Below, piece after piece: positions 39,191 through 61,904 of a stretch of DNA of 64,000 bases (the first letter of the stretch is position 1; the number at the start of each line of letters is the position of its first letter). The position numbers and the translations under genes were made by a program. This DNA comes from Verrucomicrobiota bacterium (GTDB lineage Bacteria; Verrucomicrobiota; Verrucomicrobiia; Opitutales; Opitutaceae): positions 768 to 64,767 of the forward strand of contig JBMOQY010000038.1 of the NCBI GenBank assembly GCA_049322455.1, given 5' to 3'. Below the pieces are notes generated by a model. It did no database searches and had not been told where the DNA came from. It worked only from the letters and a program-made list of their open reading frames with translations.

Positions 39191-39715
39191 CTATTTCCGG
39201 GCGGCGTGCGCCTTGGCGACCTCGACGTATTTCTCGGCCCAGGCGCGGAGCCCCAACAGCTCGGGCTCCCTGAGCGGACGCACCACCTTGGCGGGCGCGC
39301 CGAGGACCATCGAGCCGGGTGGAGCGACAAAACGCTGCGTGACGAGCGCGTTGGCACCCACGATGCAATGGTCGCCGATGACGGCGCCGTCGAGGATGGT
39401 GGCCCCCATGCCGATCAGGCACTCGTCCCCGATGGTGCAGGCGTGGATGATGGCACTGTGGCCGATGGTCGTGTAACGGCCGATCTTCACGCCGTAGTCG
39501 TCGGCCAGGTGCACCATGCTCAGATCCTGGATGTTCGTGCCCTCGCCAATTTCGATGGAGTTGATGTCGCCCCGCAGCACGCAGCCATACCACACGCTGC
39601 TCAGCAGTCCCAGCTTCACGTCGCCAAGCACGGTGGCGTTGGGGGCCACGAACGCCGCCGGCCGGATATCCGGGGTTTTCGTCAGGTGTTGGGCGAGCCT
39701 TTGCTTGATGTCCAT
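39191..39715 (-). CDS. Gamma-carbonic-anhydrase-family hexapeptide-repeat protein (YrdA/PaaY-like)
   Basis: Left-handed beta-helix repeats. VWYGCVLRGD...IGEGTNIQD..VH, IGHSAIIHAC.IGD..LIGMGA. Confidence 0.88.
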   Translation of the reverse strand: MDIKQRLAQHLTKTPDIRPAAFVAPNATVLGDVKLGLLSSVWYGCVLRGDINSIEIGEGTNIQDLSMVHLADDYGVKIGRYTTIGHSAIIHACTIGDECLIGMGATILDGAVIGDHCIVGANALVTQRFVAPPGSMVLGAPAKVVRPLREPELLGLRAWAEKYVEVAKAHAARK

Positions 39716-39983: not shown

Positions 39984-41315
39984 ATGGAGCAACTCACCCA
40001 CGTTTTACGCGGCGTTGTCGGATATGCCGCCCTGCTCGGTCTCGCCGTCGCCCTCAGTTACAACCGCAAGGCCATCCCGTGGCGCATCGTCGCCGCCGGG
40101 ATCCTGCTCCAGCTTGTTTTCGCCACCTGCGTGCTGTTCGTCGGCCCGATCCGCGACGCCGTGGAATGGGTCGGCGGCATCTTCGTGAGCCTTATGGGCT
40201 TCACCGGCGAGGGCGTGCGCTTCGTCTTCGGCTCGCTGGCCGACCAGGACAAGCACGGGGTGGTCTTCGCCATCGGCATCCTCCCTTCCATCATTTTCTT
40301 TTCCGCCTTCACCTCGTTGCTCTACTATCTCGGCATCCTGCAGAAGGTGGTCTATGCCTACGCCTGGGTCATCTCGAAGGTCATGCCGCTGTCCGGCGCC
40401 GAGACCCTGAGCGCCTCCGCCAACATCTTCCTGGGCCAGACCGAGGCGCCCTTCCTCATCAAGCCTTATCTGCCGGCGATGACCCGCTCGGAGATCTTCA
40501 CGGTCATGGTGGGTGGCATGGCCACGATCGCCGGCGCCGTGATGATCGCCTACATCAGCTTCCTCGGCGGCAGCAGCGTGGAGCAGCAGGTCCTCTTCGC
40601 CACGCACCTCATCACCGCCTCGGTGATCAACGCCCCGGCCGGCCTCATGGTCTCCAAAATCATCCTGCCCCAGACCGAGGCCGTGAACACCAACCTGGAG
40701 GTCTCGAAGGAGAAGATCGGCTCCAACCTCGTGGACGCCGTCTGCCTCGGCACCACCGACGGCCTCAAGCTCGCCGCCAACGTCGGCGCCATGCTCATCG
40801 CCTTCACCGCGCTCGTGGCGCTTTTCAACGCCCTCTTCGGCTGGGTCGGCGCCCCGCACACCCTGACGATCGCCGGCCACGAACTGTTCGCCTACCCCGG
40901 TTTCAACGGCTGGATCGAGCAGGTCACGGGCGGCACCTTCAAGTCGTTCTCCCTGGAGTTCGTGCTCGGCCTGCTCTACGCCCCGGTCGCCTGGCTCATC
41001 GGCATCGACTACGGCCACCTCCTGCAATCCGGCCAGCTTCTCGGCACCCGCACCGTGCTCAACGAATTCGTGTCCTTTCTCCAGCTCGGCACCATGAAGG
41101 CCGGCGGCGCGTTCACCGACCAGCGCACGATCATCATCCTCACCTACGCGATGTGCGGTTTCGCCAACATCGTCTCCATCGGCATCCAGATCGGCGGCAT
41201 CGGCACGCTCGCCCCCAACCAGCGTGAAAACCTCGCCGCGCTCGGCGTGAAGGCCGTCTTCGGCGGCACCATCGCCTGCTACCTCTCTGCCTGTGTCGCG
41301 GGCATGATGATCTGA
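39984..41315 (+). CDS. nupC: Concentrative nucleoside transporter (NupC/CNT family)
   Basis: 443 aa, polytopic. CNT-typical segments GEGVRFVFG, SANIFLGQTEAP, MVGGMATIAG, ILTYAMCGFANI. Confidence 0.9.
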   Translation: MEQLTHVLRGVVGYAALLGLAVALSYNRKAIPWRIVAAGILLQLVFATCVLFVGPIRDAVEWVGGIFVSLMGFTGEGVRFVFGSLADQDKHGVVFAIGILPSIIFFSAFTSLLYYLGILQKVVYAYAWVISKVMPLSGAETLSASANIFLGQTEAPFLIKPYLPAMTRSEIFTVMVGGMATIAGAVMIAYISFLGGSSVEQQVLFATHLITASVINAPAGLMVSKIILPQTEAVNTNLEVSKEKIGSNLVDAVCLGTTDGLKLAANVGAMLIAFTALVALFNALFGWVGAPHTLTIAGHELFAYPGFNGWIEQVTGGTFKSFSLEFVLGLLYAPVAWLIGIDYGHLLQSGQLLGTRTVLNEFVSFLQLGTMKAGGAFTDQRTIIILTYAMCGFANIVSIGIQIGGIGTLAPNQRENLAALGVKAVFGGTIACYLSACVAGMMI

Positions 41316-41359: not shown

Positions 41360-42151
41360 TCAGCGCTGCGCCCGTTCCTCCAGCCGGTCCAGCAGTCGCA
41401 ACAGGCCGTCGAGGATCGTGAGCGGGTGCGGCGGGCAACCCGGGATGAAGAGGTCCACCGGCACGACCGCAGCCGCGCCGGCAAGGTGCTCAGGATTGCC
41501 CACGAAGGGGCCGCCCGCAATCGCGCAGGCGCCGACCGCGACGACGATCTTCGGCTCCGGCACCGCCTCCCAGGTCTTGCGCAGCGCCAGCTCCATGTTG
41601 CGGCTGACGGGACCGGTGATGAGCAGGCCGTCGGCATGGCGCGGCGACGCCACGAACTGGATGCCGAAGCGTCCGAGGTCCCAGCCGATGGTGCCGAGCA
41701 CGTTGGTGTCGGCTTCACAGGCGTTGCAGCCGCCGGCGCTGACCTGCCGCAGGCGGAGCGACCGGCCGAACATCCGCCGCAATTTTTCATCCAGCGCCGC
41801 GGCAAGGCGGACCTCCCCTCCTGCCCCGCCCAACATAAGGTCCTCGCGCCGGCGCACCGCCATGCGGTGGTCGCCTGTCTGGGTGATAGCCTTCGTCGGA
41901 CAGGCCGCCACGCATTCCGCGCAGAAGATGCAACGCCCGAGATCGAGCGCCACCGGTGCCCCACCAGAACGCGTTATCGCCTGCGTCGGGCACACCGGCA
42001 CGCAGGCGTTGCAACCGTCGGCGCACTTCGCCGCCTCCACCCGCAACGCGCCCCCGTGCCGGTCGGGCAGCGCCGGCGCCGGACCCTGCGGATAGGCCAT
42101 CGTTTCGCAGCCGCGCTTGAGCCGGTTTGTGAGGATGTCAGGGACGAGCAT
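41360..42151 (-). CDS. Fused HycF-like 2x[4Fe-4S] ferredoxin domain + HycG/NuoB-like small subunit
   Basis: N-terminal part: CADGCNACVPVCP and CIFCAECVAACP. C-terminal part: NuoB/HycG cluster ligands GGCNACE, VGACAIAGG, IPGCPP. Confidence 0.85.
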   Translation of the reverse strand: MLVPDILTNRLKRGCETMAYPQGPAPALPDRHGGALRVEAAKCADGCNACVPVCPTQAITRSGGAPVALDLGRCIFCAECVAACPTKAITQTGDHRMAVRRREDLMLGGAGGEVRLAAALDEKLRRMFGRSLRLRQVSAGGCNACEADTNVLGTIGWDLGRFGIQFVASPRHADGLLITGPVSRNMELALRKTWEAVPEPKIVVAVGACAIAGGPFVGNPEHLAGAAAVVPVDLFIPGCPPHPLTILDGLLRLLDRLEERAQR

Positions 42152-42167
42152 GGCGGTTGGGGCGGCG

Positions 42168-43685
42168 TCAGAGATCGAAACCGCAGTAGGAAAGGTTGAA
42201 GCTCTTGTTGCAGAGCGGAAAATCCGAGATCGCCTGCCCGCGCAGGGCCAGCGCCAGGCCGGTCCAGTTGTGGAACGACGGATCGGTGATCTTGTAGCGG
42301 CGGAAGCGTCCTGCGCCGTCCGTCAGCGCCACATGGCAGACCTCGCCGCGCCAGCCCTCGGTCAGCGCGACCGCCAGGGTGTCGGGCGCCGGCGCAGGCA
42401 ACTCTTCAAAAATCCCGCCTTCGGGCGCGGCCGCGAGCTGTTCGCGCAGGAACTGGCCGGAGCGCTGCACCTCGAGCCAGCGCACCCGCGCCCGGGCGAG
42501 CACATCTCCGCCCGACCACACCGCCACGGGCGCCTGGGCGAACCGGTGCCATCCCGCCGGGTGATCGTAGCGCACGTCGCGCACAAGTCCGCTGGCCCGC
42601 GCCGCCGGGCCGACGAGGCCGATCTCCGCCGCCTGTTGCGGAAAGACCGGGCCGGTGTTCTCGAAGCGCGCACGCACGCTGGCGGACTCCCACAGCCAGC
42701 CCGCCGCCTGTTCGACCTCGGCCAGGGCGGGACCGAGCCGCTCCAGCATCTGCGCGGCGCGCGCCGGCTCCAGGTCGTGACGGCAGCCGCCGGGCCGCAC
42801 CAGGCCGCGTCCGAAGCGGTTTCCGCACAACAGCGCCGTGAGGTTGAGAAAATCGCCGCGCGTCTTGCCGCAGGCCGCCGCGGTGGGCAGAAACGCCACG
42901 TCGTTGGCCAGCGCGCCCAGGTCGCCCGTGTGATTGGCCAGCCTCTCCAGCTCCAGGGCGATGGCGCGCAGCCACTGCGCCCGCAAGGGCGCCTCAGTGC
43001 CGGCCAGAGCCTCCAGCAACGAGGCATAGGCCGTGGCGTGTGCAATGGTCGTGTCGCCCGCGACCGTCTCGATCTGGCTGAGCGTCGAACGGTGCGGCCC
43101 GCCGCACAGCGCCGTCTCCACGCCGCGATGCTGGTAGCCGAGGGCGATTTCCAGGTGCAGCACCTCCTCGCCGGCGCATTGAAACCGGAAATGCCCGGGT
43201 TCGATGATGCCGGCGTGCACCGGTCCGACCGCGACCTCGTGCACCTCGCGCCCGTCCACGCGGAAAAACTCGCCGTTGGCCGGCGCCGCGAGGTCGCCGG
43301 TCCGGCGCACGGGTTTGAGCCAGGGGTGGCCCTGCGGCACCAGCCCGTGCTGCTCCCACACTTCGCGCTCGAACAGGTGGGCCTGGACCTGCCGCACGGT
43401 CAGCGAGGGATAGCAGTTGGCCACCGCAAAGGGCATGCTGCTCTCCGGTTCGACCACTGCGCTGCGTCCGACCGCAAGCGTGTTGTCGGCATCGTAAGCC
43501 AGCACGGCGACCAGGCGGACGCCCGCCCGCCCCTCCGGCACGCCAAACCAGGCGCACAGGCGCGCGCCGCCCTCCAGCTCGGTCGCGGTGGCCTCGACGA
43601 AGTCCGCCACCGGCCACACCGGCACCTTCGCCCAAGGCACCGCGGTGGCGTTGGCCAGCAGCAGGAAGGAGGCCGGCGTGCTCAT
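42168..43685 (-). CDS. HycE/HyfG-like (NuoC+NuoD fusion) large subunit lacking Ni-Fe cysteine ligands (Ehr-type)
   Basis: 505 aa from internal ATG MSTPASF. NuoC-like YPSLTVRQVQAHLFEREVWEQHG. Group-4 signature GPVHAGIIEPGHFRF. Cysteine motifs are replaced (see findings). Confidence 0.85.
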   Translation of the reverse strand: MSTPASFLLLANATAVPWAKVPVWPVADFVEATATELEGGARLCAWFGVPEGRAGVRLVAVLAYDADNTLAVGRSAVVEPESSMPFAVANCYPSLTVRQVQAHLFEREVWEQHGLVPQGHPWLKPVRRTGDLAAPANGEFFRVDGREVHEVAVGPVHAGIIEPGHFRFQCAGEEVLHLEIALGYQHRGVETALCGGPHRSTLSQIETVAGDTTIAHATAYASLLEALAGTEAPLRAQWLRAIALELERLANHTGDLGALANDVAFLPTAAACGKTRGDFLNLTALLCGNRFGRGLVRPGGCRHDLEPARAAQMLERLGPALAEVEQAAGWLWESASVRARFENTGPVFPQQAAEIGLVGPAARASGLVRDVRYDHPAGWHRFAQAPVAVWSGGDVLARARVRWLEVQRSGQFLREQLAAAPEGGIFEELPAPAPDTLAVALTEGWRGEVCHVALTDGAGRFRRYKITDPSFHNWTGLALALRGQAISDFPLCNKSFNLSYCGFDL

Positions 43686-45124
43686 GGGTGGGGATAAAGT
43701 TGCTGGACGGCCGCCGTCCAGGCCTCGCGCAGCACCTCCGGGGTGCTCACGCCCAGCCACAGCGAAAAGCCGAGCAGAACGAGCGGCGGCATGATCAGGC
43801 CAACCGTCTCCGGAAACCGTCGCGCCTCCACCCGGGCTGCCGCCCGCGGGCGTCCGTCCACGACGCCGAACACCACGCGGGTCAGGCCGAAGAAGGCGAA
43901 GACGAGGCAGCCGAGAAACACCGCGGCCGCGCCCCCGCGGCCGGTCGCAAAGGCCGCGCGCACAATGCCGAGCTCGCTGAAGAAGGGGCCGAACGGCGGC
44001 AGCGCCGTGACGACGAACATGCCGGTCACGAAGATCCCCGCCGACCAGGGCATGAGCGCGGACATGCCCCGAACCTCGTCGAGCGTGCGCGCCCCCGCGG
44101 CGCGGCGGATGTTGCCGGCGCTCAGGAAAAGCGCGCCCTTGGTCAGGCTGTTGCCCCAGACGTGGAACAGGGCCGCCCACGCGCCGGCGCCGCCCAACGC
44201 CGCCCCGAGCGCCAGGATGCCCATGTGCTCGACGCTGGAATACGCCAGCATCCGCTTGAAATCGCGCGTGCCGAGAAGGAACAGCGCCGCCACCAGCACC
44301 GAGAACAAACCGATCGCCAGCAGCGTGCGGTCGGCCGCGGCCGCCTCCCCGGCGGCATCGAGCACGGCACGCACGCGCAGGATGGCGGTGAACGCCACGG
44401 TGGTGACCCCGCCCGCCAGCACCGCGCCCACGATCCCCGGGGCCTCGCCGTAGGCGTCGGGCTTCCACGTGTGCATCGGCGCCAGGCCCATTTTGGTGCC
44501 GTAACCCGCCAGCAGCAGCACCCAGGCCGCCAGCACCCAGGGACGGGAGAGGTCCGGACCCTGCGCCATCAGCGCCACGAACGTCAGGTCCCCGGCGCCG
44601 CCACCCTGCAGCGACGCGTAACCGAGGCAGAACGAGCCCAGCAGCGACAGCGCGATGCCGGTGCCGCCGACGAGCAGGTATTTCCAGGTCGCCTCGTAGG
44701 CGCGCGCCGTGGCGTTGAAGTGCAGCAGCGGCACGGCCGCGAGCGTGACCGCCTCGGTGGCGATCCACAGCAGGCCGAGATGCCGCGCCTGGTGCCCGGC
44801 GCTCAACAGTCCCGGCACCACCAGCATCAGGGCCACGAACACGCGGTTGGGCCGCTCGGTCCGCAGCGTCAGGTAGGGCACCGCATAGGCGGCGCAGAGC
44901 AGGAACAGGAGCGACACCGCCGGCAGCAACGCCCGGGCCAGCGGATCAAAGGCCAGCCACGCGCCCGGATCCAGGGCCGGAGGAGCGAACAGCATCCACA
45001 GGCAAAGACCGGTGTGCAGCAGCCCCACGACCGGCAGCAACCAGGGCCGTGTCCGGTTGGACGGCCAGACGGCGGCGAGCAGCGCGCCCGCCAGGGGCAG
45101 GATGACGAGAAGCAGCTCTTTCAT
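43682..45124 (-). CDS. HyfF/NuoN-like antiporter-type membrane subunit
   Basis: 480 aa from internal ATG MKELLLVIL. GYGTKMGLAPMHTWKPDAYGEAP signature of NuoL/M/N-family proteins. Confidence 0.85.
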   Translation of the reverse strand: MKELLLVILPLAGALLAAVWPSNRTRPWLLPVVGLLHTGLCLWMLFAPPALDPGAWLAFDPLARALLPAVSLLFLLCAAYAVPYLTLRTERPNRVFVALMLVVPGLLSAGHQARHLGLLWIATEAVTLAAVPLLHFNATARAYEATWKYLLVGGTGIALSLLGSFCLGYASLQGGGAGDLTFVALMAQGPDLSRPWVLAAWVLLLAGYGTKMGLAPMHTWKPDAYGEAPGIVGAVLAGGVTTVAFTAILRVRAVLDAAGEAAAADRTLLAIGLFSVLVAALFLLGTRDFKRMLAYSSVEHMGILALGAALGGAGAWAALFHVWGNSLTKGALFLSAGNIRRAAGARTLDEVRGMSALMPWSAGIFVTGMFVVTALPPFGPFFSELGIVRAAFATGRGGAAAVFLGCLVFAFFGLTRVVFGVVDGRPRAAARVEARRFPETVGLIMPPLVLLGFSLWLGVSTPEVLREAWTAAVQQLYPHP

Positions 45125-45774
45125 TCGCGCAGCACGGTCAGTTTGCGGGTGTCCAGCGAGTCGAAGGCACGCTGGATGCGATCCACGATGATGCCGATGA
45201 CGAACACGCCCACGGTCAGGTCCAGCAGGATGCCGGCCTCGACCAGCAGCGGCGTGGATCCGATGAGCAGCAGGCCGAAGAGGTAGATGCCGTTTTCCAG
45301 GATCAGGTAACCGCAGACCTGCGAAATGGCCTTGGCGCGCCCGATCAGCAGGATGAACCCGGTCAGCACCGACGCGCCCGCGCCCGGCACCAGCAGCGAG
45401 CCGGTGTGCGCCGGCAGCAGCGGCAGGTTGCGCGCCAGGGCCACGGCGGCGATCGTCCCGCCCGCACCGAGCAGCAGCGACGGCACGAAGCCGATGAACG
45501 GCTCGACCTCGCGGTCGATGTGCGCGGTGCGCATCGCGCGACGCAGCAGAAGCGGGATGAGGAACCCCTTGCCTGCGACCGTGACCAGCGCCACCAGCCC
45601 GGCCAGCCATTCGAAATGCGATTCCAGCACGAGTGGCATGATGCCGAGCACCATGCCCTGCACCGACACGGTCTGGATCAGCGCGGGCAGCCGGCTGCTG
45701 CCCAGCGCGAGCAGGTTCAGGCCCATCGCGAGGCCGATCAGCAGGTTCAGCGTGCCGTAGTCGGCGTGATTCAT
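45121..45774 (-). CDS. HyfE-like small membrane subunit
   Basis: 217 aa polytopic (E. coli HyfE is of similar size, from memory). Position between the HycD-like and HyfF-like genes matches hyf order. Confidence 0.7.
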   Translation of the reverse strand: MNHADYGTLNLLIGLAMGLNLLALGSSRLPALIQTVSVQGMVLGIMPLVLESHFEWLAGLVALVTVAGKGFLIPLLLRRAMRTAHIDREVEPFIGFVPSLLLGAGGTIAAVALARNLPLLPAHTGSLLVPGAGASVLTGFILLIGRAKAISQVCGYLILENGIYLFGLLLIGSTPLLVEAGILLDLTVGVFVIGIIVDRIQRAFDSLDTRKLTVLRE

Positions 45775-46682
45775 GCCCCGCCTCCTTTCCACGCCACGAG
45801 CAGCGCGAACAGGCAGAGCAGGAACGCCGTCGTCAGCAGCAGCGGCACCTTCCGGAACGCCAGGCGGGCCATGAGCGACTCGACCAACCCCACCCCCACC
45901 GCGACCGCCAGCACCCCGCCCGCCAGCGCCCCCGCGCCCGCATACGGACCGAGGTCGCCCAGCGGCAGCACCGCCTCGGTGAGCAGCACGGCGAACAGCA
46001 GCAGCTTCATCGCCGCCCCGTGCAGGACGACCGCCAGCGGCGGCCCGCTGTGGTCGAGGACCATGACCTCGTGGATCATGGTCAGCTCGAGGTGGGTGTT
46101 CGGATCGTCGAAGGGCACGCGGCAGTTCTCCGCCAGCAGCACGGTGAAGAGCCCGGCCGCCAGCAGCACGCCGCCCGCGCCCACCGCCGGCGCGAGCATG
46201 GAGGACAGCGCGAGGCCGCCGCTCTGGACGGCCAGGGCCAGCACCGCGGCGATCAGCGCCGCCTCGGCCAGCACGGCATAGCTCACCTCGCGGGCCGCGC
46301 CCATGCCCTCGAAGGCCGAGCCGGTCTCCATCGCCGCCCAGGTCGTGGCGAATCGCGCGAGCGCGAGCAGATAAACCAGCAGGATCACATCGCCGCGAAA
46401 ACTGAACATTGCCCCGGCGGGCCCCAGCGGCAGCAGCATTGCCGCGCCCGTCACTGCCACCCAGGCCACCGCCGGCCCGGCCACAAAGCCCGGCGAAACC
46501 AGCGTGCTCAGCACCACGCCCTTCTGCCACAGCCGCGCCAGGTCGTAGTAGAGCTGCAGCACCGGCGGACCCCGCCGCCCCGCCACCCAGGCCTTCACGC
46601 GGTTGATCACACCGGGCAGCAGCGGCGCCAGGCACAGCCACAAGGCCAGCCGGCACAGAAAATCGAGGAACGTCAGGATCAT
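45771..46682 (-). CDS. HycD/HyfC/NuoH-like membrane subunit
   Basis: 303 aa. AENCRVPFDDPNTHLELTMIHEVMVLDHSG matches the NuoH/HycD E..R.PFD...E.EL conserved loop. Confidence 0.85.
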   Translation of the reverse strand: MILTFLDFLCRLALWLCLAPLLPGVINRVKAWVAGRRGPPVLQLYYDLARLWQKGVVLSTLVSPGFVAGPAVAWVAVTGAAMLLPLGPAGAMFSFRGDVILLVYLLALARFATTWAAMETGSAFEGMGAAREVSYAVLAEAALIAAVLALAVQSGGLALSSMLAPAVGAGGVLLAAGLFTVLLAENCRVPFDDPNTHLELTMIHEVMVLDHSGPPLAVVLHGAAMKLLLFAVLLTEAVLPLGDLGPYAGAGALAGGVLAVAVGVGLVESLMARLAFRKVPLLLTTAFLLCLFALLVAWKGGGA

Positions 46683-48634
46683 GACCGCCCTCCCATCAAC
46701 ACCAGTGCGCCGATCGCCGCAAGCCCGGCCACGATGTAGAGCACGTAGGCTTGCAGCCGGCCGTGCTGCAAGCGGCGCGCCGCCAGCGAAGCCTGCAGCA
46801 CGACGGCGCCCACGGGCCCGAGCACGCGCTCCAGCACCGTCTCGGGCACGCGCTCCACCCGCAGCGCGCTCTCCGGCAGCGGACCGCGCGGCCGGCGCAG
46901 CTTCAACTCAGGCCGCAAGATCCAGCCGAACCAGCCCGCGGCGATGCCGCCGAACGAACCTGCGGTGTATTGCATGCTCGCCGCCGGCGCCGCGTAACCG
47001 CAATCCCAGGTCGGGCCGCGACGCGCCCCGGCCCCGCGCACCCGGCGCCACAGCCAGCTCGCCGCGGCCACCGCCAGCAGGGCGAGCACGGGTTGGGCCA
47101 CGCTCAGTGCGCGCAACGATGCCGGCATGGACCGGCCCGCCCACGCGGGGTTCCATGCTTCCGCCGCCCGGGCCAACGCCGGCCAGAACAGCACCGGCGC
47201 AAGCCCCAGCACGATGCAGAGACCCGCCAGCACCAGCATCGGCGCGCGCATCCACGGACCGCATTCGTGCGCATGCTTCGCCGCCTTCGTTCGCGCCGCG
47301 CCCAGGAAAACCACCGTCCCGGCCTTGACGAATCCGGCCAGCGCCAGCGCCCCGGCCGAGACCAGCAACAGCACCGCGGGCAGTGCCGCCCACGCGGCCG
47401 GCCCGCGGCCGGCCACGGCTTCGAACAGCCCGAGATACACCAGCCACTCGCTGACAAAACCGTTCAAGGGCGGCAACCCGGCCACGGCGAGCGCGCCCAG
47501 CGTGAACAGCCCGGCCGTCCACGGCATCGGGCGCCACAATCCGCCGAGGCGGCTCATCTCCCGCGTGCCCGTGGCATGCAGCACCGAGCCGGCGCCCAGG
47601 AACAGCAGCGATTTGAACACCCCGTGGTTCCACACGTGCAGCAGCGCGCCAGTCAGCACCAACGGCCCCCAACCCGTCGCCGGACCGCCGGTGCGGGCGG
47701 CGAGCAACGCGCCGCCGAAGCCGGTGAGAATGATGCCGACGTTCTCCACCGTGCAGTAGGCCAGCAGCCGCTTGAGATCGTTCTGCGCCACGGCGAAGGC
47801 GATGCCCAGCAGCGCACCGGTCGCGCCCAGCCCCAGCACGACCCAGCCCGCCGCCTCCGGCACGGGCAGCCAGCCGCTGAAACGCAGCAGACCGTAGAGA
47901 CCCATTTTGACCGACACGCCCGACATGATCGCCGACACGTGGCTCGGGGCGTTGGCATGCGCCGAGGGCAGCCAGACATGCAGGGGAAACAGGCCGGCCT
48001 TCACGCCAAAGCCCGCCAGCACCACCCAGAACAACGGCTCCAGCTCGGTCCGCTCCCGCATCGGACCGAGATCCCAGCCGCCGGTGCGGGCCGCCAGCGC
48101 GGCGAAGAAGGCGAACAGGCAGGCCGTCCCCGCGTGCGACGCCGCGAGGTAGAGCCAGCCGGCCGCCCGCGCCTCGCGCTTGGCGTGGTCCAGCGTGACC
48201 AGAAAATACGCGCACACGGCGAACAGTTCCCATGCGATGAGAAAGTGCAGGCCGTTGGCGGACACCAGCACGCTGCCGAGGCTCAGTGCAAGGGCGCTCC
48301 ACCAGATCCGGTTGCGCGGCGCGGCATCCGGGTGGTGCCGGTCCGGCCAGTATTCGTGTGCATAGGCCGCACCCGCGGCGACCACGACGCCAAGCAGGGC
48401 GAGAAACCACGCGCTCAATCCGTCCAGCCGCAGATGCAGCGGCTCACCGTCAACCGCGAAGGCGCTCCGCCATTCCCAATCGGGCGCGCCACCCAGCACC
48501 TGCGCCGCCGCCGCCAGCGCCGCGACCGCGCTCCCCACGGCGCATCCCAGCCAGACCCGCGGCCAGCGCGGGCCGGCCATGACGCCCGCCGCCTGGCCCA
48601 GGGCTGCCACCAGCAGCAGCACGCCCGGGCTCAT
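46679..48634 (-). CDS. HyfB/HycC/NuoL-like antiporter-type membrane subunit (intact paralog)
   Basis: 651 aa from internal ATG MSPGVLL. GLFPLHVWLPSAHANAPSHVSAIMSGV signature and the C-terminal TWDCGYAAP...MQYTAGSF extension. Confidence 0.88.
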   Translation of the reverse strand: MSPGVLLLVAALGQAAGVMAGPRWPRVWLGCAVGSAVAALAAAAQVLGGAPDWEWRSAFAVDGEPLHLRLDGLSAWFLALLGVVVAAGAAYAHEYWPDRHHPDAAPRNRIWWSALALSLGSVLVSANGLHFLIAWELFAVCAYFLVTLDHAKREARAAGWLYLAASHAGTACLFAFFAALAARTGGWDLGPMRERTELEPLFWVVLAGFGVKAGLFPLHVWLPSAHANAPSHVSAIMSGVSVKMGLYGLLRFSGWLPVPEAAGWVVLGLGATGALLGIAFAVAQNDLKRLLAYCTVENVGIILTGFGGALLAARTGGPATGWGPLVLTGALLHVWNHGVFKSLLFLGAGSVLHATGTREMSRLGGLWRPMPWTAGLFTLGALAVAGLPPLNGFVSEWLVYLGLFEAVAGRGPAAWAALPAVLLLVSAGALALAGFVKAGTVVFLGAARTKAAKHAHECGPWMRAPMLVLAGLCIVLGLAPVLFWPALARAAEAWNPAWAGRSMPASLRALSVAQPVLALLAVAAASWLWRRVRGAGARRGPTWDCGYAAPAASMQYTAGSFGGIAAGWFGWILRPELKLRRPRGPLPESALRVERVPETVLERVLGPVGAVVLQASLAARRLQHGRLQAYVLYIVAGLAAIGALVLMGGRS

Positions 48635-49326
48635 GACCTGCCGCCTCCCGCCGCGGCCTCGTCGCAAGCCGCGGCCGCCAGGTAGATGTCGGCGTCCCCT
48701 GCCCCGGCGGAGATGGTTGCGCGCCAGTCTTCGCGCTTGAGCGCGCGGCTGAGACGCCCGAGCAGGTCGAGGTGCGCGCGGGGCGACGGCGCGATGAAGA
48801 ACAGCAGGCGCGTGACCGGCACACCGTCGAGCGGTTCGGCCTCGGGCAGCGCTTCGCGCAGCAGCAACAGCGCCAGTGTGCCGGAATCCCGCCCCAGCGC
48901 GATGCGCGTGCTCGGATGCGGCAGGGCAAAGCCATGCCCCACGGGCGCGAGCGTCACCCCGCCCTTGGCCGTGAGCCGCCGCGCCAGCATCTGCCGCACG
49001 GCGGGGGATGCGCCCGGCATCGCCGCGGCGATCTTGCCGAACACCGCGGGGATGTCCGCGGCGGGCACGTCGCGCCAGATGCCACCGGTGCGCAGCAGTT
49101 GCTCGAGGCGGATGTCCGTCGCGAAGGGCGCCCGCGTTTCGGGCGCCAGAAAGCCCGCCTGAGCGGCGAGCCCGCGCGCCGCCGCCCATTCCGCCACCTG
49201 CGCCCGGTCGAACAACGGCCGGCCGCGATCGAGGGTGTGCGGCAGGGCCTCGGTCCGCATCCAATCCTCGACGACTCTCTCCGAGACGCCGAAGGACTCC
49301 GCAATCTGCACCAGGTTCAGATACAT
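48631..49326 (-). CDS. Excisionase/MerR-type HTH domain fused to a PTS EIIA-2 (PtsN/EIIA-Ntr-like) domain
   Basis: N-terminal LNLVQIAESFGVSERVVEDWMRTEALP...FDRAQVAEW (HTH_17-like). C-terminal EIIA-2-like domain with phosphorylatable-His context LAPVGHGFALPHP. ATGA overlap with the downstream HyfB-like gene. Confidence 0.75.
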   Translation of the reverse strand: MYLNLVQIAESFGVSERVVEDWMRTEALPHTLDRGRPLFDRAQVAEWAAARGLAAQAGFLAPETRAPFATDIRLEQLLRTGGIWRDVPAADIPAVFGKIAAAMPGASPAVRQMLARRLTAKGGVTLAPVGHGFALPHPSTRIALGRDSGTLALLLLREALPEAEPLDGVPVTRLLFFIAPSPRAHLDLLGRLSRALKREDWRATISAGAGDADIYLAAAACDEAAAGGGRS

Positions 49327-49399
49327 GGCTGAAGTTTTTTTAGGCCGATGGAGCGGACACGTCACCTCAATTTTGTTGCCGGCTAGTCTTCATGGCTTG

Positions 49400-51342
49400 T
49401 CATGAGGCATCTCCGCCCAGGACCAGCAAGGCGAGGGCGGCGATGCCCAGCAGCAGATACAGCAGGTAGGATTGCAGCCGGCCGTGCTGCAGGTGGCGCG
49501 CCATCGCCGCCGCGCGCAGGACCGCCCCGGCCGCCGGTTCGACCACGTGCTCGAGCACGGTCTCCGGCGTGTGCTCCGTGAAGCTCGCCTGCGCGGGCAA
49601 CACCGCCGCCGGCCGCTGTTCATGGCGCACGGGCCGCAAAATCCAGGCGAACCACCCGGTGATGATGCTGGCAAAGGAGGCCGCGGTATATTGCATCCGC
49701 GGCGTGGGCGCCGCGTAGCCGCAGTCCCAGGTCACGGCACGGACCGGGCCGCCGCGGCGCACGCGGGACCACAGCCCCCACGCAGCCCCGCCCGCGCCGA
49801 GTGCCAGCGCGACGTGCAGCAGGCTGAGCGCGAACAGGGCGCGGCCGTGCCCGCCCAGGCCGGGCTCCACACGCCCACGGCGCGCGCCACGGCGGGCCAG
49901 AACAGCACCGGGGCGAGACCGATCGCCACGCAGAACGCCGCGAGCAGCACCATGGCTCCGCGCATGGCGGGCCCGCTCTCGTGCGCGTGCGCCGCCTCCG
50001 CGGAACGCGGGGCGCCCAGGAAGACCACGCCGCACACTTTCGCGAAGCAGGCCAGGGCCAAGGCCCCCGTCAGGGCCAGCAGGATCGCGGCCGCAATCGC
50101 CGCCCACGCCGCCGCGCCGGACGCAAGCACGGCGTCGAAAAGACCGAGATACACCAGCCATTCGCTGACGAAACCGTTCAGCGGCGGAAGGCCGGCAATC
50201 GCCGACGCGCCGAGCGCGAACAGGGCGGCCGTCCACGGCATCAGGCGCCACAGGCCGCCGAGCCGGCTCATCTCGCGCGTGCCGGTGGCATGGAGCACCG
50301 AACCGGCGCCGAGGAACAGCAGCGCCTTGAACAGGCCGTGATTCCACACGTGCAGGAGTCCGCCGGCCAGCGCCAGCGCGCCCCACTCCGGCCGGCCTTG
50401 CTCCGCCGCCACGATGGCGAACCCGAGCCCGATGAGAATGATGCCGATGTTCTCGACGCTGTGGTAGGCCAGCAGCCGCTTCAGGTCGTGCTGCCCCAGC
50501 GCGAACGCCACGCCGAGCACGGCGCTCGCCACGCCCAGCGCCGCAATCATCCAGCCCGCGCCGCCGGGCAGCGGCATCCAGCCGCTGAAACGCACGAGCC
50601 CGTAGATGCCGAGCTTGATGGTCACGCCCGAAAGGATTGCGGAGACGTGGCTCGGGGCGTTGGCATGGGCGGAGGGCAGCCAGATGTGCAGGGGGAACAG
50701 GCCGGCCTTCAAACCGAAACCGAACAGCGCCAGCCAGAACAGGGGCGCGAGTTCAGGACGGCCGGGTAACGGGCCGAGTTCCCAGCCCCCGGTCTCCACC
50801 GCCAGCACGGTGAAGAAGGCAAACAGCGCGAGCACCGCCACATGCGACGCTCCGAGATAGAGCCAGCCCGCGGCCCGGATCTCGGCGCGCGTCCGGTCGA
50901 GTGTCACCAGAAAATAGGCGGCCAGCGTAAAAACCTCCCACGCGATGAGAAAGTGCAGTCCGTTGACCGTCACCAGCACGAGCCCGATGCTGGCGAGCAT
51001 CAGGCTCCACCACAGGCGCCCCACCCCGGCCGACCTCGGGTGCGCCGCATCGGTCCGGTATTCGCAGGCATACACGGTGGCGGCCCCGCCGACCACGCAC
51101 GTGAGGGCGAGAAACAACGCGCTGATCGCATCGAAGCGCAGGTGCACGGGTTCGCCGCCCACCCGGAAACCGGCAGACCAGTCCCACTCGCCCCCTCCCG
51201 TCAGCGTGCCGGCCGCCGCCACCAAAGCGGCCACGCAACCGAGCAGGGTTCCCGCCAGCCAGACCCGCGGCGCAGTCCGCCAGGAGAGGGCGCCCGAAAG
51301 CGTCCCGACCAAGGCGACCAGCAGCAGCGGACCCGGATTCAT
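49400..51342 (-). pseudogene. Second HyfB/NuoL-like antiporter-type subunit interrupted by one frameshift (pseudogene, sequencing error or recoding)
   Basis: Two track ORFs in different frames (49732..51342 and 49400..50386) together reproduce the full paralog architecture. The frame switches between ...VGVWSPAWAG and GRALFALSLLHVALAL... near 49846-49857. Total length is 1943 nt, one short of a multiple of 3. Confidence 0.75.
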
Positions 51343-53198
51343 GAGGCTCTCGTCGCGGGCGGTTCGCGCGCGGACCGGTCGAGGCGGTTGAGGATCTTCT
51401 CGGCCCGCGCGAGCGACTCGGCGAGCTCCTTGCGCGCGGCCTCCACCGCCTGCCGCTCGGTGTGGAGGGTTTCATGCGGCTCGGGCGGCTCGTCCACCGG
51501 CGGCAACCCGAGGATCTCGCGCGCCCGCGCCAGCGCGGCCGTGATGTGCGGGCAAACGTTCTCGCGGCCGAGCCGGTCGATGAAGCCGGCGTTTTCCATG
51601 ACGGCCAGCGGCTGGGTGTGGGGCGCGCTCAGGATGAGGTGCTTGCCCTTGGCGCGGAGCTTCAGGTGCAGGTCCTCCAGCGCGCGCAGGCCGGTGGCGT
51701 CCATCGCGAGCACCTTGCGCACGCGCAGGATGAGGACCTCGGGCTCCTGCTTCACCCGCTTCAGCTCGTCGTCGAGCTTGTCCACGACGCCGAAAAAGAA
51801 CGCGCCGAACACCCGGAACACGAGCACGCCCTCCGGTATTTCCTTGCCGACAAGCGAATGGTGCGAGCCCTCGGTCTCGGTGGACTCGTCCACCGCCGTG
51901 ATCTGGGAGGTCTCGGAGATGCGTTTGACCAGCAGCAACGCGGCGAGCACCACGCCGACCTCGACGGCCAGCGTGAGGTTCGTCAGCACGGTCAGCGCGA
52001 AGGTGGCAACAAACACCGAGGAGTCGCTGAGCGGCCAGTTGCGCAGCCGCGCGAACTGCTTCCACGAGACCATGCGGAACGCCGCCACGACCAGGATGGC
52101 GCTCAGCGCCGAAAGCGGAATGCAGCCGACAAGCGGGGCCGCGGCGAGCAGCAGCACGAGCAGCAGTCCGGCATGGACGAGGCCGGCGACCGGCGTGCGG
52201 GCGCCGGCCCGGACGTTCATCACGGAGCGCGCCACGGCGCCGGTGACGGGGATGCAGCCGAAGAGGGGGCCGGCCATGTTCGCCACGCCCTGGCCGATCA
52301 GTTCCTGGTTCGAGTCGTGCCGCTCGTCCAGCAGGCCGTCGGTCACCACGGCGCACAGCAGCGCCTGCATGGCGACGAGCAGCGCGATCGTGAACGCCGG
52401 CTGGAGCAGGTTGCTGGCCGTGTCCCAGTCGGCGCGCGGCCATTGCAGCGCCGGCAGGCTCCGGGAGAATTCGCCGAACTCCGACGCGATGGTCGGGATC
52501 TGCCAGCGGTCATGCAAACCGAAGGCGGCCACGGCCACCGTGGCGGCGACCAGGCCGACCATCGGTCCCGGCAGCAGGCGCGAGAACCTCGCCGGCCACA
52601 GCGCGATCAGCACCACCACGGCCACCCCCAGTCCGGCGGTGGGCCAGTGGATGGCGTCGAGATGCGAGGCGAACACCTTGAGTTTGCCCGGGAAATCCAC
52701 CGGCATCCGTTCCACGGCCAGTCCGAGGAAGTTCTTGATCTGCGAGCCGAGGATGAGGATCGCGATGCCCTTGGTGAAGGCCCGGGAGACCGGATAAGGA
52801 ATGTAGCGGATGATCGAGCCCATCCGGGCAAATCCCATCACGCAGAGCATCGCCCCGGCCATGATGGTGCAAAGCATCAGGCCGTTGGTCCCGTAACCCT
52901 GCAGCACGCTGTAGGTGATGATGACGAAGGCTCCGGTCGGACCGCCGATCTGCACCCGCGAGCCGCCGAGCGCCGCGATGATGCCGCCGCCGATGATGGC
53001 GGTGAACAGCCCCTGCTCCGGCCGGACACCCGACGCGATTGCGAAGGCGATGGACAGCGGGAACGCCAAGATCATCACGTTCAGCCCGGCCAGGAAATCG
53101 CGCCGGAAGTCCGCCCGCGTATAGCCCTGCAGCGCATCGAGCAGGCACGGGCGGAACTGGAATCCTGGCAAGGCCAGGGAGACTTCCGGCTGATTCAT
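51339..53198 (-). CDS. SulP-family inorganic anion transporter with C-terminal STAS domain
   Basis: 619 aa. DFLAGLNVMILAFPLSIAFAIASG, GGSRVQIGGPTGAF, STAS region VLVFRVFGAFFFG...LILRVRKVLAMDATGLRALEDL, then a ~60-aa charged tail. Stop overlaps the next gene's start (ATGA). Confidence 0.92.
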   Translation of the reverse strand: MNQPEVSLALPGFQFRPCLLDALQGYTRADFRRDFLAGLNVMILAFPLSIAFAIASGVRPEQGLFTAIIGGGIIAALGGSRVQIGGPTGAFVIITYSVLQGYGTNGLMLCTIMAGAMLCVMGFARMGSIIRYIPYPVSRAFTKGIAILILGSQIKNFLGLAVERMPVDFPGKLKVFASHLDAIHWPTAGLGVAVVVLIALWPARFSRLLPGPMVGLVAATVAVAAFGLHDRWQIPTIASEFGEFSRSLPALQWPRADWDTASNLLQPAFTIALLVAMQALLCAVVTDGLLDERHDSNQELIGQGVANMAGPLFGCIPVTGAVARSVMNVRAGARTPVAGLVHAGLLLVLLLAAAPLVGCIPLSALSAILVVAAFRMVSWKQFARLRNWPLSDSSVFVATFALTVLTNLTLAVEVGVVLAALLLVKRISETSQITAVDESTETEGSHHSLVGKEIPEGVLVFRVFGAFFFGVVDKLDDELKRVKQEPEVLILRVRKVLAMDATGLRALEDLHLKLRAKGKHLILSAPHTQPLAVMENAGFIDRLGRENVCPHITAALARAREILGLPPVDEPPEPHETLHTERQAVEAARKELAESLARAEKILNRLDRSAREPPATRAS

Positions 53199-54014: not shown

Positions 54015-54755
54015 TCAGGAGAGCAACAGCTTCCCCGCGGCCAGGGCCGCGAAGCACAGCGCCAGGCTCTCGAACAGGCGCTGGTTCACCCGTTCGACGA
54101 CCGGCCGGCCGAGCAGCGCGCCCAGCGCGACGGCGGGCAGCAGCCACAGGTTGAGGGTGAGGCTGGATCCGTTGATGATGCCGAGCTGGGCCGCGAAAGG
54201 CACCTTGATCCAGTTGATGAGCAGGAAAAACGCCGCACCCGTGCCCAGGAGCTCCAGCTTGCCCAGGCGCATCGCGAGCAGATAGAGCGTCATCACCGGG
54301 CCCGCGGCGTTGGCGATCATCGTCGTCACGCCCGCGAACAGCCCCATCACCGGACCGAACCAGGCCGGCGCGCGGGCGGCGGCCTCGTCGGGATTCCTCC
54401 AGCGCCGCCACACCTGCAACGCCAGCATCAGGGCGATGATGGCTCCCACCAGCCGCGCCGTCTGCCGGTCGTCGATGCGCCCCAGGGCCAGCCAGCCCAG
54501 CGCCACGCCGCCCACCGCCCACGGCAGCAGCCCGCCGACCCGGCGCCATTCGAGGTTCTTGCGGTAGGTGTAGAAGGCGAAGATGTCGGCGAAGATAAGC
54601 AGCGGCAGCACGACGCCGGTGGCGAGCTTCGCCGGCATCAGGTTGGCAAGGATGCCGACCGACAGGATCGATATCCCGGGAATGCCCGTCTTGGAGAAAC
54701 CGAAGAGCACCGCCGCCAGCGCCAGCAACGCCCATTGCCCGGGTTCAAAGGTCAT
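54015..54755 (-). CDS. TauE/SafE (DUF81) family anion exporter-like membrane protein
   Basis: 246 aa from internal ATG MTFEPGQWALL. Repeated G-rich TM pattern (GFSKTGIPG..., GVTTMIANAAGPVM). ATGA overlap with recF. Confidence 0.85.
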   Translation of the reverse strand: MTFEPGQWALLALAAVLFGFSKTGIPGISILSVGILANLMPAKLATGVVLPLLIFADIFAFYTYRKNLEWRRVGGLLPWAVGGVALGWLALGRIDDRQTARLVGAIIALMLALQVWRRWRNPDEAAARAPAWFGPVMGLFAGVTTMIANAAGPVMTLYLLAMRLGKLELLGTGAAFFLLINWIKVPFAAQLGIINGSSLTLNLWLLPAVALGALLGRPVVERVNQRLFESLALCFAALAAGKLLLS

Positions 54756-57326: not shown

Positions 57327-58256
57327 TCACGCCACGGCCACGGACTTGCCCGCGAGCTCGGCGGTCACGCTCTGACAGAGACCGACGAAGGTCTCCTCGC
57401 CGAGCGAGAGCCGGCGGCCGCGCAGGTGGCCCACGCCCCACTTGCGGCGCAGCCTGCGGCGCCCGAGCGGGAGCGACACGAGCGCGCCCGACACGAGTTC
57501 GTTGCGCGCCACCCACGGCGCGAGCACGCCGACGCCGAGACCGATCTTCACGAGTTCCTTGATCGCCTCCATGCTGCCGAGTTCGAGGATGTTGGTGAGC
57601 GGCAGCTCCTCGGCGCGGAAATACTCCTGCACCAGCCGGAACGTGTAGCTCGTGTGGTTGTAAACGATGAGCGTCTCGTTCTCGAACCCGCCGGGCTGCA
57701 CCCTGCCCTCGCGCGCCCAGGCGTGGCCGGGCGCGACGAGGAAACGCATCTCGTCCTCGAAGAGCGGCACGAACGCCAGCTCCTTCATGCCCTCAGGCTC
57801 CAGCATGATGGCCAGGTCGATGCGGTTGTTCAGCAACTGCTCCACCTGCCGCGCGTGGTCGCCCGGATCGATCGAGATGACGCATTTCGGGAAGCTCTGC
57901 TTGAATTCACGCAGCACGGTCGGCAGGATGTACTGGCAGGCGGTGGTGCTCGCGCCGAGCCGCAGCCGTCCGTGACCCCAGCGGGTGAGTTCGTCGAGAC
58001 CGCGGCGCGCGGTCTTCATTTCCGCCAGAATCTTGTCCACGTGTCGCAGAAATTGCTCGCCAGACTGCGTGAGCGCGACGCGCCGGCCGGCGCGCTCGAA
58101 GAGCCGGCAGCCGGCCTGCTCCTCCAGCGCCTTGATGGCATGGCTGATGGCGCCTTGGGTGAGATAAAGTTCCTGCGCGGCACGCGTAAAGCTGCCCAGC
58201 CTCGCGAGGGTGGCAAAGGCCAGAAGCTGTCGTGTGTCGAATACGTTGTGCTTCAT
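57327..58256 (-). CDS. LysR-family transcriptional regulator
   Basis: HTH LLAFATLARLGSFTRAAQELYLTQGAISHAIKALE plus a LysR substrate domain. Divergent from the ABC-transporter operon. Start at internal ATG MKHNVF. Confidence 0.9.
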   Translation of the reverse strand: MKHNVFDTRQLLAFATLARLGSFTRAAQELYLTQGAISHAIKALEEQAGCRLFERAGRRVALTQSGEQFLRHVDKILAEMKTARRGLDELTRWGHGRLRLGASTTACQYILPTVLREFKQSFPKCVISIDPGDHARQVEQLLNNRIDLAIMLEPEGMKELAFVPLFEDEMRFLVAPGHAWAREGRVQPGGFENETLIVYNHTSYTFRLVQEYFRAEELPLTNILELGSMEAIKELVKIGLGVGVLAPWVARNELVSGALVSLPLGRRRLRRKWGVGHLRGRRLSLGEETFVGLCQSVTAELAGKSVAVA

Positions 58257-58374
58257 GTCGTGGGCTTTAGCGGCAGGCATGAGCCGGGCTCATGTCGGCC
58301 ATGAATTCTTTGCTGAGCAGTAATCGGGCCAATTCCGCCGGCTGGCATGTCACGCGCTGAGAGGCAGGCATTCC

Positions 58375-60712: not shown

Positions 60713-60726
60713 ACCCGCTTCGTGTC

Positions 60727-60990
60727 ATGAGCAGCACCCCCACGGGCCCGCGCCCCGACGCCTACTGGCAGGCCTGCCGTCACCCGGCGGTCTGGCAGCG
60801 CGCCGCGCGGCTCGGGCTCGTGGTCGGGCTCATCCAGGTCTCCCTCAATCAGGGCGACCACTGGCTCACGGGCCACGTCACGACCGGCGTCATCGTCAAA
60901 TCCATCCTCTCCCCGCTCCTCTCCTTCGGCATCGCCTTCGCCTCCGCCGCGGCGACGCAGGCGGAAAACCTCCCCCGCTCCGCACCATGA
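60727..60990 (+). CDS. Small two-TM protein, NrtS-like (putative nitrate/nitrite transporter component)
   Basis: 87 aa. LGLVVGLIQVSLNQGDHWLTG...ILSPLLSFGIAFASA resembles my recollection of the NrtS family (VG..L..INQGD). ATGA overlap with the permease gene. Confidence 0.55.
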   Translation: MSSTPTGPRPDAYWQACRHPAVWQRAARLGLVVGLIQVSLNQGDHWLTGHVTTGVIVKSILSPLLSFGIAFASAAATQAENLPRSAP

Positions 60991-61772: not shown

Positions 61773-61872
61773 TGCGCATCAAGGCGCGGACAGCCGAAAA
61801 ACCTTAAACTGAATACGGATCAATTTATGATTTATAATCTGCGATTTATGATTTCGGGAAAGAGCTCGAAAT

Positions 61873-61890: not shown

Positions 61891-61904
61891 AGAGGTCGCC
61901 AAGG

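Follow-up and report, generated by a model that had tools for sequence, protein, structure and literature searches.

Gene content of the cluster

The window analysed here, 64,000 nucleotides of contig JBMOQY010000038.1, carries on its minus strand a chain of nine genes, in which a SulP/SLC26-family transporter precedes the subunits of a hydrogenase-like membrane complex of the Ehr (Ech-hydrogenase-related) type and a gene encoding a helix-turn-helix (HTH) domain fused to a phosphotransferase system (PTS) EIIA domain (Table 1). The DNA is of high GC content (63-73% G+C), and the host is an Opitutaceae-like Verrucomicrobiota metagenome-assembled genome (MAG) from soil or freshwater; proteins of the window are 87-92% identical to those of Lacunisphaera/Opitutaceae MAGs, and the SulP is 100% identical to a protein of one 'Verrucomicrobiota bacterium' MAG. 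On the same strand, 5' of sulP, lie recF, tauE and ruvC (80 nt separating ruvC and sulP), and ehrS is followed at its 3' side by a convergent nucleoside transporter gene (39984-41315, plus strand). A preliminary description of the window had proposed the nine genes as one chain; strand, gene order and domain content were as described, but the first HyfB-like gene is not one intact open reading frame (ORF). The six ATGA stop/start overlaps that had been reported were read directly from the sequence (51339-42, 48631-34, 46679-82, 45771-74, 45121-24 and 43682-85). The two non-overlapping junctions measure 73 nt (first HyfB-like gene to EIIA gene), a possible internal regulatory or re-initiation site, and 16 nt (large subunit to FeS subunit).

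Table 1. Features of the SulP-Ehr cluster, from the first gene of the chain to the last
Feature	Coordinates	Strand	Evidence
SulP/SLC26-family transporter with C-terminal STAS domain, 619 aa, first in chain	51339..53198	-	Pfam Sulfate_transp 2e-81, STAS 3.9e-14
HyfB/NuoL-like subunit #1 (EhrA-1), frameshifted; start overlaps SulP stop (ATGA)	49400..51342	-	Pfam Proton_antipo_M 7.7e-46
AT-richer intergenic gap, 73 nt; sole sizeable break of the chain	49327..49399	-	Direct reading
HTH_17 (MerR/excisionase-like) and PTS EIIA-2 (EIIA-Ntr/PtsN-like) fusion, 231 aa	48631..49326	-	Pfam, homologues, PtsN match
HyfB/NuoL-like subunit #2 (EhrA-2), 651 aa, intact	46679..48634	-	NCBIfam hydrogenase-4 subunit B, 500 bits
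NuoH/HycD-like membrane subunit (EhrB), 303 aa	45771..46682	-	Pfam NADHdh 3e-24
HyfE-like small membrane subunit (EhrC), 217 aa	45121..45774	-	NCBIfam hydrogenase-4 membrane subunit 4.9e-21, positions 7-215/216
HyfF/NuoN-M-like antiporter-type subunit (EhrD), 480 aa	43682..45124	-	Pfam Proton_antipo_M 4.1e-42; NCBIfam hydrogenase-4 subunit F, 232 bits
Large subunit (EhrL): NuoC-like N-terminus and HycE/NuoD-like domain	42168..43685	-	Pfam Complex1_49kDa 7.6e-30
FeS subunit (EhrS): HycF/NuoI-like 2x[4Fe-4S] and HycG/NuoB-like fusion, last gene	41360..42151	-	Pfam Fer4 families, Oxidored_q6 2.6e-26

The interval assigned to the first HyfB-like gene, which had been taken as intact, measures 1943 nt, no multiple of three, and is read in two frames that overlap, 49732-51342 and 49400-50386. 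Against locus L084, a close relative whose SulP is 92% identical to that of the window and whose gene is intact (650 aa), the window sequence shows a 7-nt gap, that is, a net -1 frameshift, at about 49837/49838, and the NCBIfam model for hydrogenase-4 subunit B is covered from position 20 to 502 in one frame and from 536 to 666 in the other. The sole database protein with 100% identity is a shortened 536-aa product (P0396), all other homologues among the roughly 120 matches listed being about 650 aa long. Since the identical protein exists only in this shortened form, the frameshift is either an assembly error or a strain-specific, recent pseudogene.

An Ehr complex without Ni-Fe ligands

Domain content, gene order and a large subunit devoid of the Ni-Fe cysteines identify the complex, in agreement with its initial assignment, as an Ehr-type, Ni-Fe-less, group-4-hydrogenase-like complex, and the locus very probably represents an ehrA1-[HTH-EIIA]-ehrA2-B-C-D-L-S operon with an inherited SulP linkage. 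The definition of Ehr reportedly goes back to Coppi and co-workers and to Marreiros et al. in 2013. The names EhrA-1, EhrC, EhrL and EhrS were given to proteins of Geobacter sulfurreducens (GSU0739-45; PMC7894505), and the other subunit names used here were extrapolated from that set. In G. sulfurreducens the Ehr subunits were more abundant on formate (PMC7894505), a hypothetical complex of formate dehydrogenase and Ehr has been proposed for Margulisbacteria (PMC6349859), and Ehr is present in about half of Nitrospirales genomes according to the literature; the function is still called unknown (PMC10284858, from 2023; PMC12342949, from 2025; PMC7894505). Large subunits of Geobacteraceae loci are 53-57% identical to that of the window, with the same gene order and an HTH-EIIA gene as well (the order B2-D-E-F-L-FG was found in the Geomonas/Geobacteraceae loci L036, L048, L050 and L051). 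Geobacter Ehr thus shares with the window the set and order of subunits, the Cys-less large subunit and the NuoB-like small subunit, and the window differs in having SulP/STAS in first position and one hyfB-like gene 5' of the EIIA gene.

Among solved structures EhrL matched HycE best (4.7e-43), followed by MbhL and Nqo4. In the alignment with HycE, RVCGICGFAH corresponds to TVAGDTTIAH in EhrL (C241 and C244 replaced by Ala and Thr; CGIC by AGDT) and the C-terminal DPCYSC to NLSYCG (both Cys positions replaced, by Ser and Gly), so that all four Ni-Fe ligand positions are lost, as had been stated for the window and as is likewise the case in 69 diverse aligned family members. Across the 70 sequences of that alignment, the window protein included, the ligand positions hold Ala or Ser (Cys in 7/70), Ser or Thr, Ser499 (68/70) and Gly502 (70/70). 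The tail of the family is distinctive (DFPLCNKSFNLSYCGxDL), and the window EhrL terminates in the family motif DFPLCNKSFNLSYCGFDL. Position Tyr87 of Nqo4, which we take to be a quinone-binding residue, aligns with Gly210 of EhrL; with the Ni-Fe ligands lost too, the pocket is therefore neither hydrogenase-like nor complex-I-like.

EhrS matched MbhJ (4e-32), HycG (8e-29) and HycF (6.8e-12), and retains the four proximal-cluster cysteines (GGCNACE, GACAIAGG and GCPP, aligned to MbhJ/HycG) together with an N-terminal, HycF-like domain of eight cysteines, so that the motifs of three successive [4Fe-4S] clusters are intact. No redox module is visible besides the 2x[4Fe-4S] domain that the NuoB-like subunit carries as a fusion, as had been noted. 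In the membrane part, EhrA-2 has HycC as its best solved match (2.2e-53), spans positions 76-628 of the 630 of the NuoL model TIGR01974, and keeps the Glu of transmembrane helix (TM) 5 and the Lys of TM7, TM8 and TM12 (AWE, GVKAG, VKMG and FKSLLF, aligned to HycC). Equivalent Glu/Lys motifs were found in EhrA-1 and EhrD by direct reading, so all three antiporter-like subunits retain the canonical residues and are predicted to pump ions. EhrC gave a weak match to Pfam Oxidored_q2 besides the NCBIfam match.

Pfam scanning of some 40 further ORFs across the 64-kb window (a few small stretches lay outside the scan) revealed no formate dehydrogenase, HyfA/HycB, Hyp/HycI or NuoEFG, which agrees with what had been reported, and neither Hyp/HycI nor formate dehydrogenase/HycB genes recurred in the flanks of 80 related Ehr loci (see below). 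Lacking the Ni-Fe ligands and, within the window, formate dehydrogenase, HycB/HyfA and Hyp/HycI, the complex cannot be a hydrogenase. Nor does it have the character of complex I, given the Gly at the Tyr87 position and the lack of NuoEFG in the window. The Escherichia coli Hyc (7Z0S) and Hyf/FHL-2 complexes are the nearest solved relatives of EhrL, EhrA and EhrS and share their architecture, but in the window the Ni-Fe ligands are absent and HycF and HycG are fused. With complex I and the Pyrococcus MBH and MBS complexes the window shares a NuoB/C/D/I-like arm on a NuoH-like subunit and antiporter-like subunits with Glu/Lys; it differs from complex I in the two respects just named and from MBS in that EhrL matches the MBS large subunit at 1.1e-18, far below the match to HycE.

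Conservation of the SulP linkage

The best 120 homologues of the window SulP were 74-100% identical to it, and ten orthologues were traced to their contigs by exact protein. In nine of these contigs the orthologue (74-92% identity) lies immediately 5' of, and codirectional with, an Ehr cluster, either as SulP-hyfB-EIIA-hyfB (L084, L086, L088, L089, L093, L095 and L096) or as SulP-EIIA-hyfB (L091 and L092, the latter a MAG labelled Luteolibacter), with junctions between SulP and Ehr genes that range from overlaps of 4-10 nt to gaps of about 100 nt; in most of these relatives stop and start codons overlap. Identities to the window run roughly parallel for SulP and EhrL (73-76% and 77-80%, respectively, in L008, L089, L091 and L092). 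The earlier conclusion that SulP is part of the operon and no chance neighbour is upheld by this synteny, the overlaps alone being insufficient. Judged from the contigs compared, the window SulP clade accompanies the verrucomicrobial Ehr operon almost exclusively, as an accessory that is vertically inherited yet can be dispensed with.

In most of the relatives examined (L089, L091-L095, L003) a divergent gene for a sigma-54-dependent response regulator precedes sulP or the Ehr cluster, and the same relatives carry a small Zn_ribbon_9 (PF02591) gene, often overlapping sulP, and sometimes a methyltransferase gene. In the lineage of the window, ruvC stands in place of the Zn_ribbon_9 and sigma-54 regulator genes. 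The linkage of Ehr with SulP had been put forward as undescribed, and no description of it was found in the literature; nor was any found there of repeated SulP recruitment or of a link of DabAB or P-II to Ehr. What is new is thus the operon fusion of Ehr with a dedicated SulP, the Ehr family itself being known already.

Ehr loci and their partners across phyla

The wider distribution was surveyed by searching a single genome of each GTDB species with an alignment built from diverse large subunits. This yielded 80 Ehr loci, which were mapped by tblastn, 53 of them informative in having enough upstream sequence to be read. The loci come from many phyla, with Verrucomicrobiota, Planctomycetota, Geobacterales, Acidobacteriota, Spirochaetota and Elusimicrobiota among the groups represented, and have the conserved core [HTH-EIIA]-hyfB(x1-2)-nuoH-hyfE-hyfF-L-S, with two hyfB-like genes in 17 of the 53. 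SulP is adjacent in four informative loci (L008, L014, L013 and L077) and in one shortened locus (L043); no SulP was seen in the Geobacter-type loci surveyed. The five loci with SulP among the 80 (about 20 kb each) compare with about 0.6 expected by our own rough estimate, which assumes some two SulP genes per 5-Mb genome. In the gene-neighbourhood comparison that had been suggested, the linkage is conserved when followed from SulP, since nine of ten orthologues sit directly 5' of Ehr, and extends to 4/53 loci when followed from Ehr, where EIIA is the commoner partner. SulP-Ehr linkage is lineage-restricted and no general property of Ehr.

The few linked transporters differ among themselves. 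L008 has the same architecture as the window, L014 carries SulP immediately 5' of the EIIA gene, and L013 a 43%-identical STAS-SulP immediately 3' of ehrS. In L077 (Isosphaeraceae) a SulP::P-II fusion (10033-11949) follows immediately 3' of ehrS of a complete Ehr cluster. In L043, a Planctomycetaceae MAG contig (JAJDEI010000299.1, 177-12371), the order is EIIA-ehrL-ehrS-DabA-DabB-(second antiporter-like gene)-SulP::P-II, with a DabA matching PF10070 at 1.9e-241 and a NuoL-like DabB; genes for NuoH, HyfE and HyfF are missing from this interval, 176 nt of contig remain on its upstream side, and the locus may represent a hybrid Ehr/DAB system or a rearrangement. The SulPs of L077 and L043 (10383-12371 in the latter) have a C-terminal P-II-like domain (PF00543) in place of STAS and are 56% identical to each other. 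With at least three types and positions represented, the SulPs found next to Ehr suggest independent recruitment, at least twice beyond the window type. DabA was not found in the window by tblastn, and among all fetched loci occurred in L043 only.

Within two ORFs on each side of the 80 Ehr loci there was no recurrent redox partner or transporter, two-component regulators and the families of the cluster itself excepted, and no pairing of formate dehydrogenase with Ehr of the type proposed for Margulisbacteria (PMC6349859). Decay or loss of the linkage is seen in L005, which retains a STAS remnant only (1684-2244, 84% identical over 87 aa), 5' of a fragmentary first hyfB, and in L094 (see below). 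L009 (Verrucomicrobia MAG JACRJZ010000060.1, 254-12250) holds a complete second, divergent hyfB-nuoH-hyfE-hyfF-L-S set between ehrD and ehrL of a window-type host cluster, its proteins being 36-39% identical to those of the window.

The HTH-EIIA gene

The most general accessory gene of the survey encodes the HTH-EIIA protein, which was present in 35 of the 53 informative loci under at least eight phylum-level labels; no mention of it as a member of the Ehr operon was found in the Ehr literature. The window protein itself scores just under the Pfam cut-off (26.1 and 21.9 bits; EIIA cut-off 27), while 43 and 42 of 46 homologues from Ehr loci match PTS_EIIA_2 (best 1.9e-28) and HTH_17, respectively. 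Its best solved match is PtsN, with GHGFALPH aligned to GEGVAIPH, and H137 and H185 are invariant among the operon homologues; we equate these with the phospho-acceptor His of PtsN and its second conserved His. The EIIA domain accordingly appears to carry the phospho-acceptor His (GxGxAxPH) and is predicted to be phosphorylated. With EIIA-Ntr (PtsN) it has the phospho-His motif and the second His in common, but it differs in its N-terminal HTH_17 domain and in belonging to the operon of a membrane complex and not lying beside rpoN.

Flanking regions

Scans of the cluster for sigma-70 promoters and for terminators gave counts at the level of shuffled sequence, a sigma-54 pattern scan returned 25 matches against 29 expected (none in the ruvC-sulP gap), and an Rfam scan for riboswitches returned two tRNAs only; in the 73-nt gap, too, none of these searches gave a signal above chance. 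The tauE gene 5' of the cluster (54015-54755) encodes a TauE/SafE-family anion exporter, and the region 57327-63273 contains, besides a LysR regulator, one or more NMT1_2 binding proteins belonging to an ABC system of the NitT/TauT type (nitrate/sulfonate/bicarbonate). Synteny of tauE and NMT1_2 is common to L086 and L088 (with two NMT1_2 genes and a permease there) and is not seen in the other SulP-Ehr loci. At a distance, on the plus strand, a fatty-acid-synthase-like cluster (14890-22603) combines KAS, two amine-oxidase-type flavoproteins and a xylose-isomerase-like TIM barrel with FabA-like, enoyl-ACP-reductase-like and KAS-III-like genes, and may specify a lipid or polyene pathway.

Functional interpretation

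For a functional coupling of Ehr and SulP in the form outlined here, the energetic part of which we infer, the probability is put at roughly 0.5. In such a system EhrS would be fed by a soluble electron donor of low potential, probably ferredoxin, and would pass the electrons through its three [4Fe-4S] clusters to an acceptor at the remodelled EhrL/EhrS/EhrB pocket, and the conformational drive would export H+ or Na+ through EhrA1, EhrA2 and EhrD. SulP would be an optional carrier added to the pump and synthesised in step with it, taking up anions by means of an ion gradient or potential that the pump keeps up locally; bicarbonate would be the leading candidate for its substrate and sulfate the second. 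HTH-EIIA, finally, might make the expression or the activity of the system depend on how far a PTS-Ntr-type relay is phosphorylated. Inorganic carbon is favoured over sulfate or dicarboxylate because of the DabAB and SulP::P-II genes in Planctomycetota and of a cyanobacterial precedent, in which Mrp/Mnh-type NDH-like complexes are proposed to export Na+ and so to support Na+/HCO3- symport (PMC4390856; PMC13249358). The cyanobacterial circuit of SbtA/BicA with Mrp/Mnh resembles the window in tying a bicarbonate carrier to a NuoL/M/N-like complex proposed to export the coupling ion; it differs in that carrier and complex are tied by a shared regulon and the complex has no FeS or hydrogenase-like arm, whereas the window carrier lies in the operon of a redox-type complex.

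A bolder version, which we regard as improbable, would make Ehr the motor of an unrecognised, complex-I-derived class of anion or inorganic-carbon uptake systems, the third after NDH-1MS/Cup and DabAB, with a ferredoxin-fed pump under PTS-Ntr/EIIA control and interchangeable carriers (STAS-SulP in Verrucomicrobiota; SulP::P-II and DabAB in Planctomycetota).

Several observations weigh against coupling, beginning with the transporter itself. Its membership of the SulP/SLC26 superfamily is clear (Pfam Sulfate_transp 274 bits, STAS 52.7 bits, both above gathering scores), and with BicA, DauA and SLC26Dg it shares the 14-TM Sulfate_transp core followed by STAS. The NCBIfam models, however, all score below their curated cut-offs (DauA, the best, 452 bits against 614; sulP TIGR00815, 368 against 380; BicA, 246 against 880), so that the substrate is not readable from sequence. 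Solved structures do not discriminate either, since SLC26Dg (2e-46), BicA (1.3e-43) and AtSULTR4;1 (1.1e-40) lie only a few orders of magnitude apart. The ligands of substrate and Na+ in BicA are Thr69, Asp258, Thr262, Gly300, Ala301 and Thr302 (PMC13249358). With a one-residue offset assumed between chain index and published numbering, Thr69, Gly300 and Ala301 are kept in the window SulP (as Thr88, Gly320 and Ala321), while three of the four Na+ ligands are replaced (Asp258 by Gln278, Thr262 by Cys282 and Thr302 by Val322). Gln278, at a TM8 position, is invariant in 24 aligned window-type orthologues, and the residue is Glu in SLC26Dg and AtSULTR4;1 as well as in the SulPs of L014, L043 and L077. 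Because Gln replaces the acidic residue and two further Na+ ligands are lost, a canonical cation-coupled mechanism is not evident. The analogy with BicA drawn in the preliminary description thus fails on sequence, and by these residues and scores the window SulP is not a BicA. Another difference from BicA, DauA and SLC26Dg is a further C-terminal helical tail of about 55 aa beyond STAS, which is conserved in the Ehr-linked SulP clade.

Other such points come from the distribution of the genes and from the locus. Ehr occurs without SulP in 49 of the 53 informative loci, the closest relative on a long contig (L001, EhrL 87% identical) has ruvC followed by hyfB with no SulP, which it either lost or never possessed, and L094 has the SulP orthologue (4501-6381) in its usual upstream context with no Ehr downstream; neither SulP nor Ehr, therefore, strictly needs the other. 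The association of DabAB with Ehr was seen on a single MAG contig, which, together with the Na+ site missing from the window SulP, makes the case for inorganic carbon a thin one. The functionally unrelated recF and tauE genes share an ATGA overlap (54752-54755), and about three more overlaps occur outside the cluster, such packing being common in this genome; ATGA overlaps by themselves are consequently weak evidence, and translational chaining as a stand-alone proof of membership was discarded for this reason. Lastly, the gene that overlaps sulP directly, hyfB#1, is the one that is frameshifted in this assembly.

Much of this would be expected under mere co-regulation, in which one condition calls for both SulP and Ehr (such as a state of nutrients or energy to which sigma-54/PTS-Ntr-type regulators respond) and the carrier uses the bulk gradient with no physical or energetic coupling to the complex. 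That Ehr is mostly found without SulP and SulP once without Ehr, that some relatives have gaps of 36-100 nt at the junction, and that overlaps in the window join unrelated genes too would all fit, and a shared regulatory circuit is indicated by the divergent sigma-54 regulator and Zn-ribbon genes 5' of the relatives' clusters and the EIIA gene inside them. We nevertheless consider co-regulation alone rather unlikely: the SulP orthologue group is almost exclusively Ehr-linked (9/10), its helical extension past STAS is conserved, and the independent recruitment of three SulP types is less well explained.

Alternatively, Ehr could itself be an inorganic-carbon pump, its ion flow driving CO2 hydration and bicarbonate accumulation as in NDH-1MS/CupA and DabAB, with SulP, SulP::P-II and DabAB as exchangeable parts of a single system that serve for transport or for hydration. 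DabA/DabB and MpsAB resemble Ehr in that a NuoL-like membrane subunit energises the accumulation of dissolved inorganic carbon, and differ in that the window has no DabA and Ehr possesses a complete peripheral arm with FeS clusters as well as three antiporter-like subunits. The succession of ehrL, ehrS, DabA, DabB, an antiporter-like gene and SulP::P-II in L043, and the orthologous SulP::P-II directly after the complete Ehr cluster of L077, would be natural in such a system. Regulation by a P-II-like sensor is typical of bicarbonate carriers (PMC13249358), and SulP-family HCO3- carriers exist outside cyanobacteria (PMC10880623). Yet DabAB occurs at one locus only and most Ehr loci have no neighbour related to dissolved inorganic carbon, the conserved Cys, Asp and His residues of what was the Ni-Fe pocket show some variation among family members, and the window cluster contains no carbonic-anhydrase-like domain, which together leave the pump a low probability. 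The sole gene nearby of gamma-carbonic-anhydrase type, a hexapeptide-repeat (LbH) gene at 39191-39715 on the minus strand, lies 1.6 kb past the end of the cluster behind the convergent nucleoside transporter; it has no homologue in the fetched related loci and was rejected as a part of the system.

It is very unlikely that SulP instead delivers a substrate on which Ehr acts, such as a sulfur oxyanion or polysulfide-type compound, as in Pyrococcus MBS, or a C4-dicarboxylate. Most Ehr clusters have no transporter at all, so the catalytic substrate of Ehr is presumably cytoplasmic or membrane-borne, and no flavin or molybdopterin module is present. DauA as the best curated model, the fumarate carrier SLC26Dg as the best solved relative and a TM10 Arg (R324) that has an Arg as its counterpart in the sulfate carrier AtSULTR4;1 would speak for such a delivery, but the scores of all SulP models stay below the family cut-offs. 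The MBS complex (6u8y, matched at 1.1e-18) does set a precedent for a hydrogenase-like complex with a substrate other than H2, and tauE and the NitT/TauT-type ABC system lie a few kb upstream in the window; these sulfur-flavoured neighbours are missing from other SulP-Ehr loci. A chance or selfish insertion of SulP between ruvC and Ehr, with the overlap reflecting compact high-GC packing as between other unrelated genes of the window, and with the ruvC-ehr synteny of L001 as the state lacking SulP, is largely refuted by the persistence of the arrangement across relatives of 74-92% identity (Opitutales-type MAGs and the Luteolibacter-labelled MAG) in differing upstream contexts, with no mobile-element genes flanking it, and is most improbable.

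Significance

Ehr is widespread and has been without an assigned function since its definition some 20 years ago. A conserved and repeatedly evolved link with SulP gives a testable lead to that function, the more so as a DAB carbon pump and a P-II sensor domain are joined to it in one lineage, and as a PTS-Ntr-like EIIA regulator belongs to two thirds of Ehr clusters. If the coupling of Ehr and SulP is real, it would be a new way in which a secondary carrier is wired to an ion pump of its own that is driven by redox reactions; and should the bolder reading of Ehr as an anion or inorganic-carbon motor prove true, a physiological role would be assigned to Ehr.

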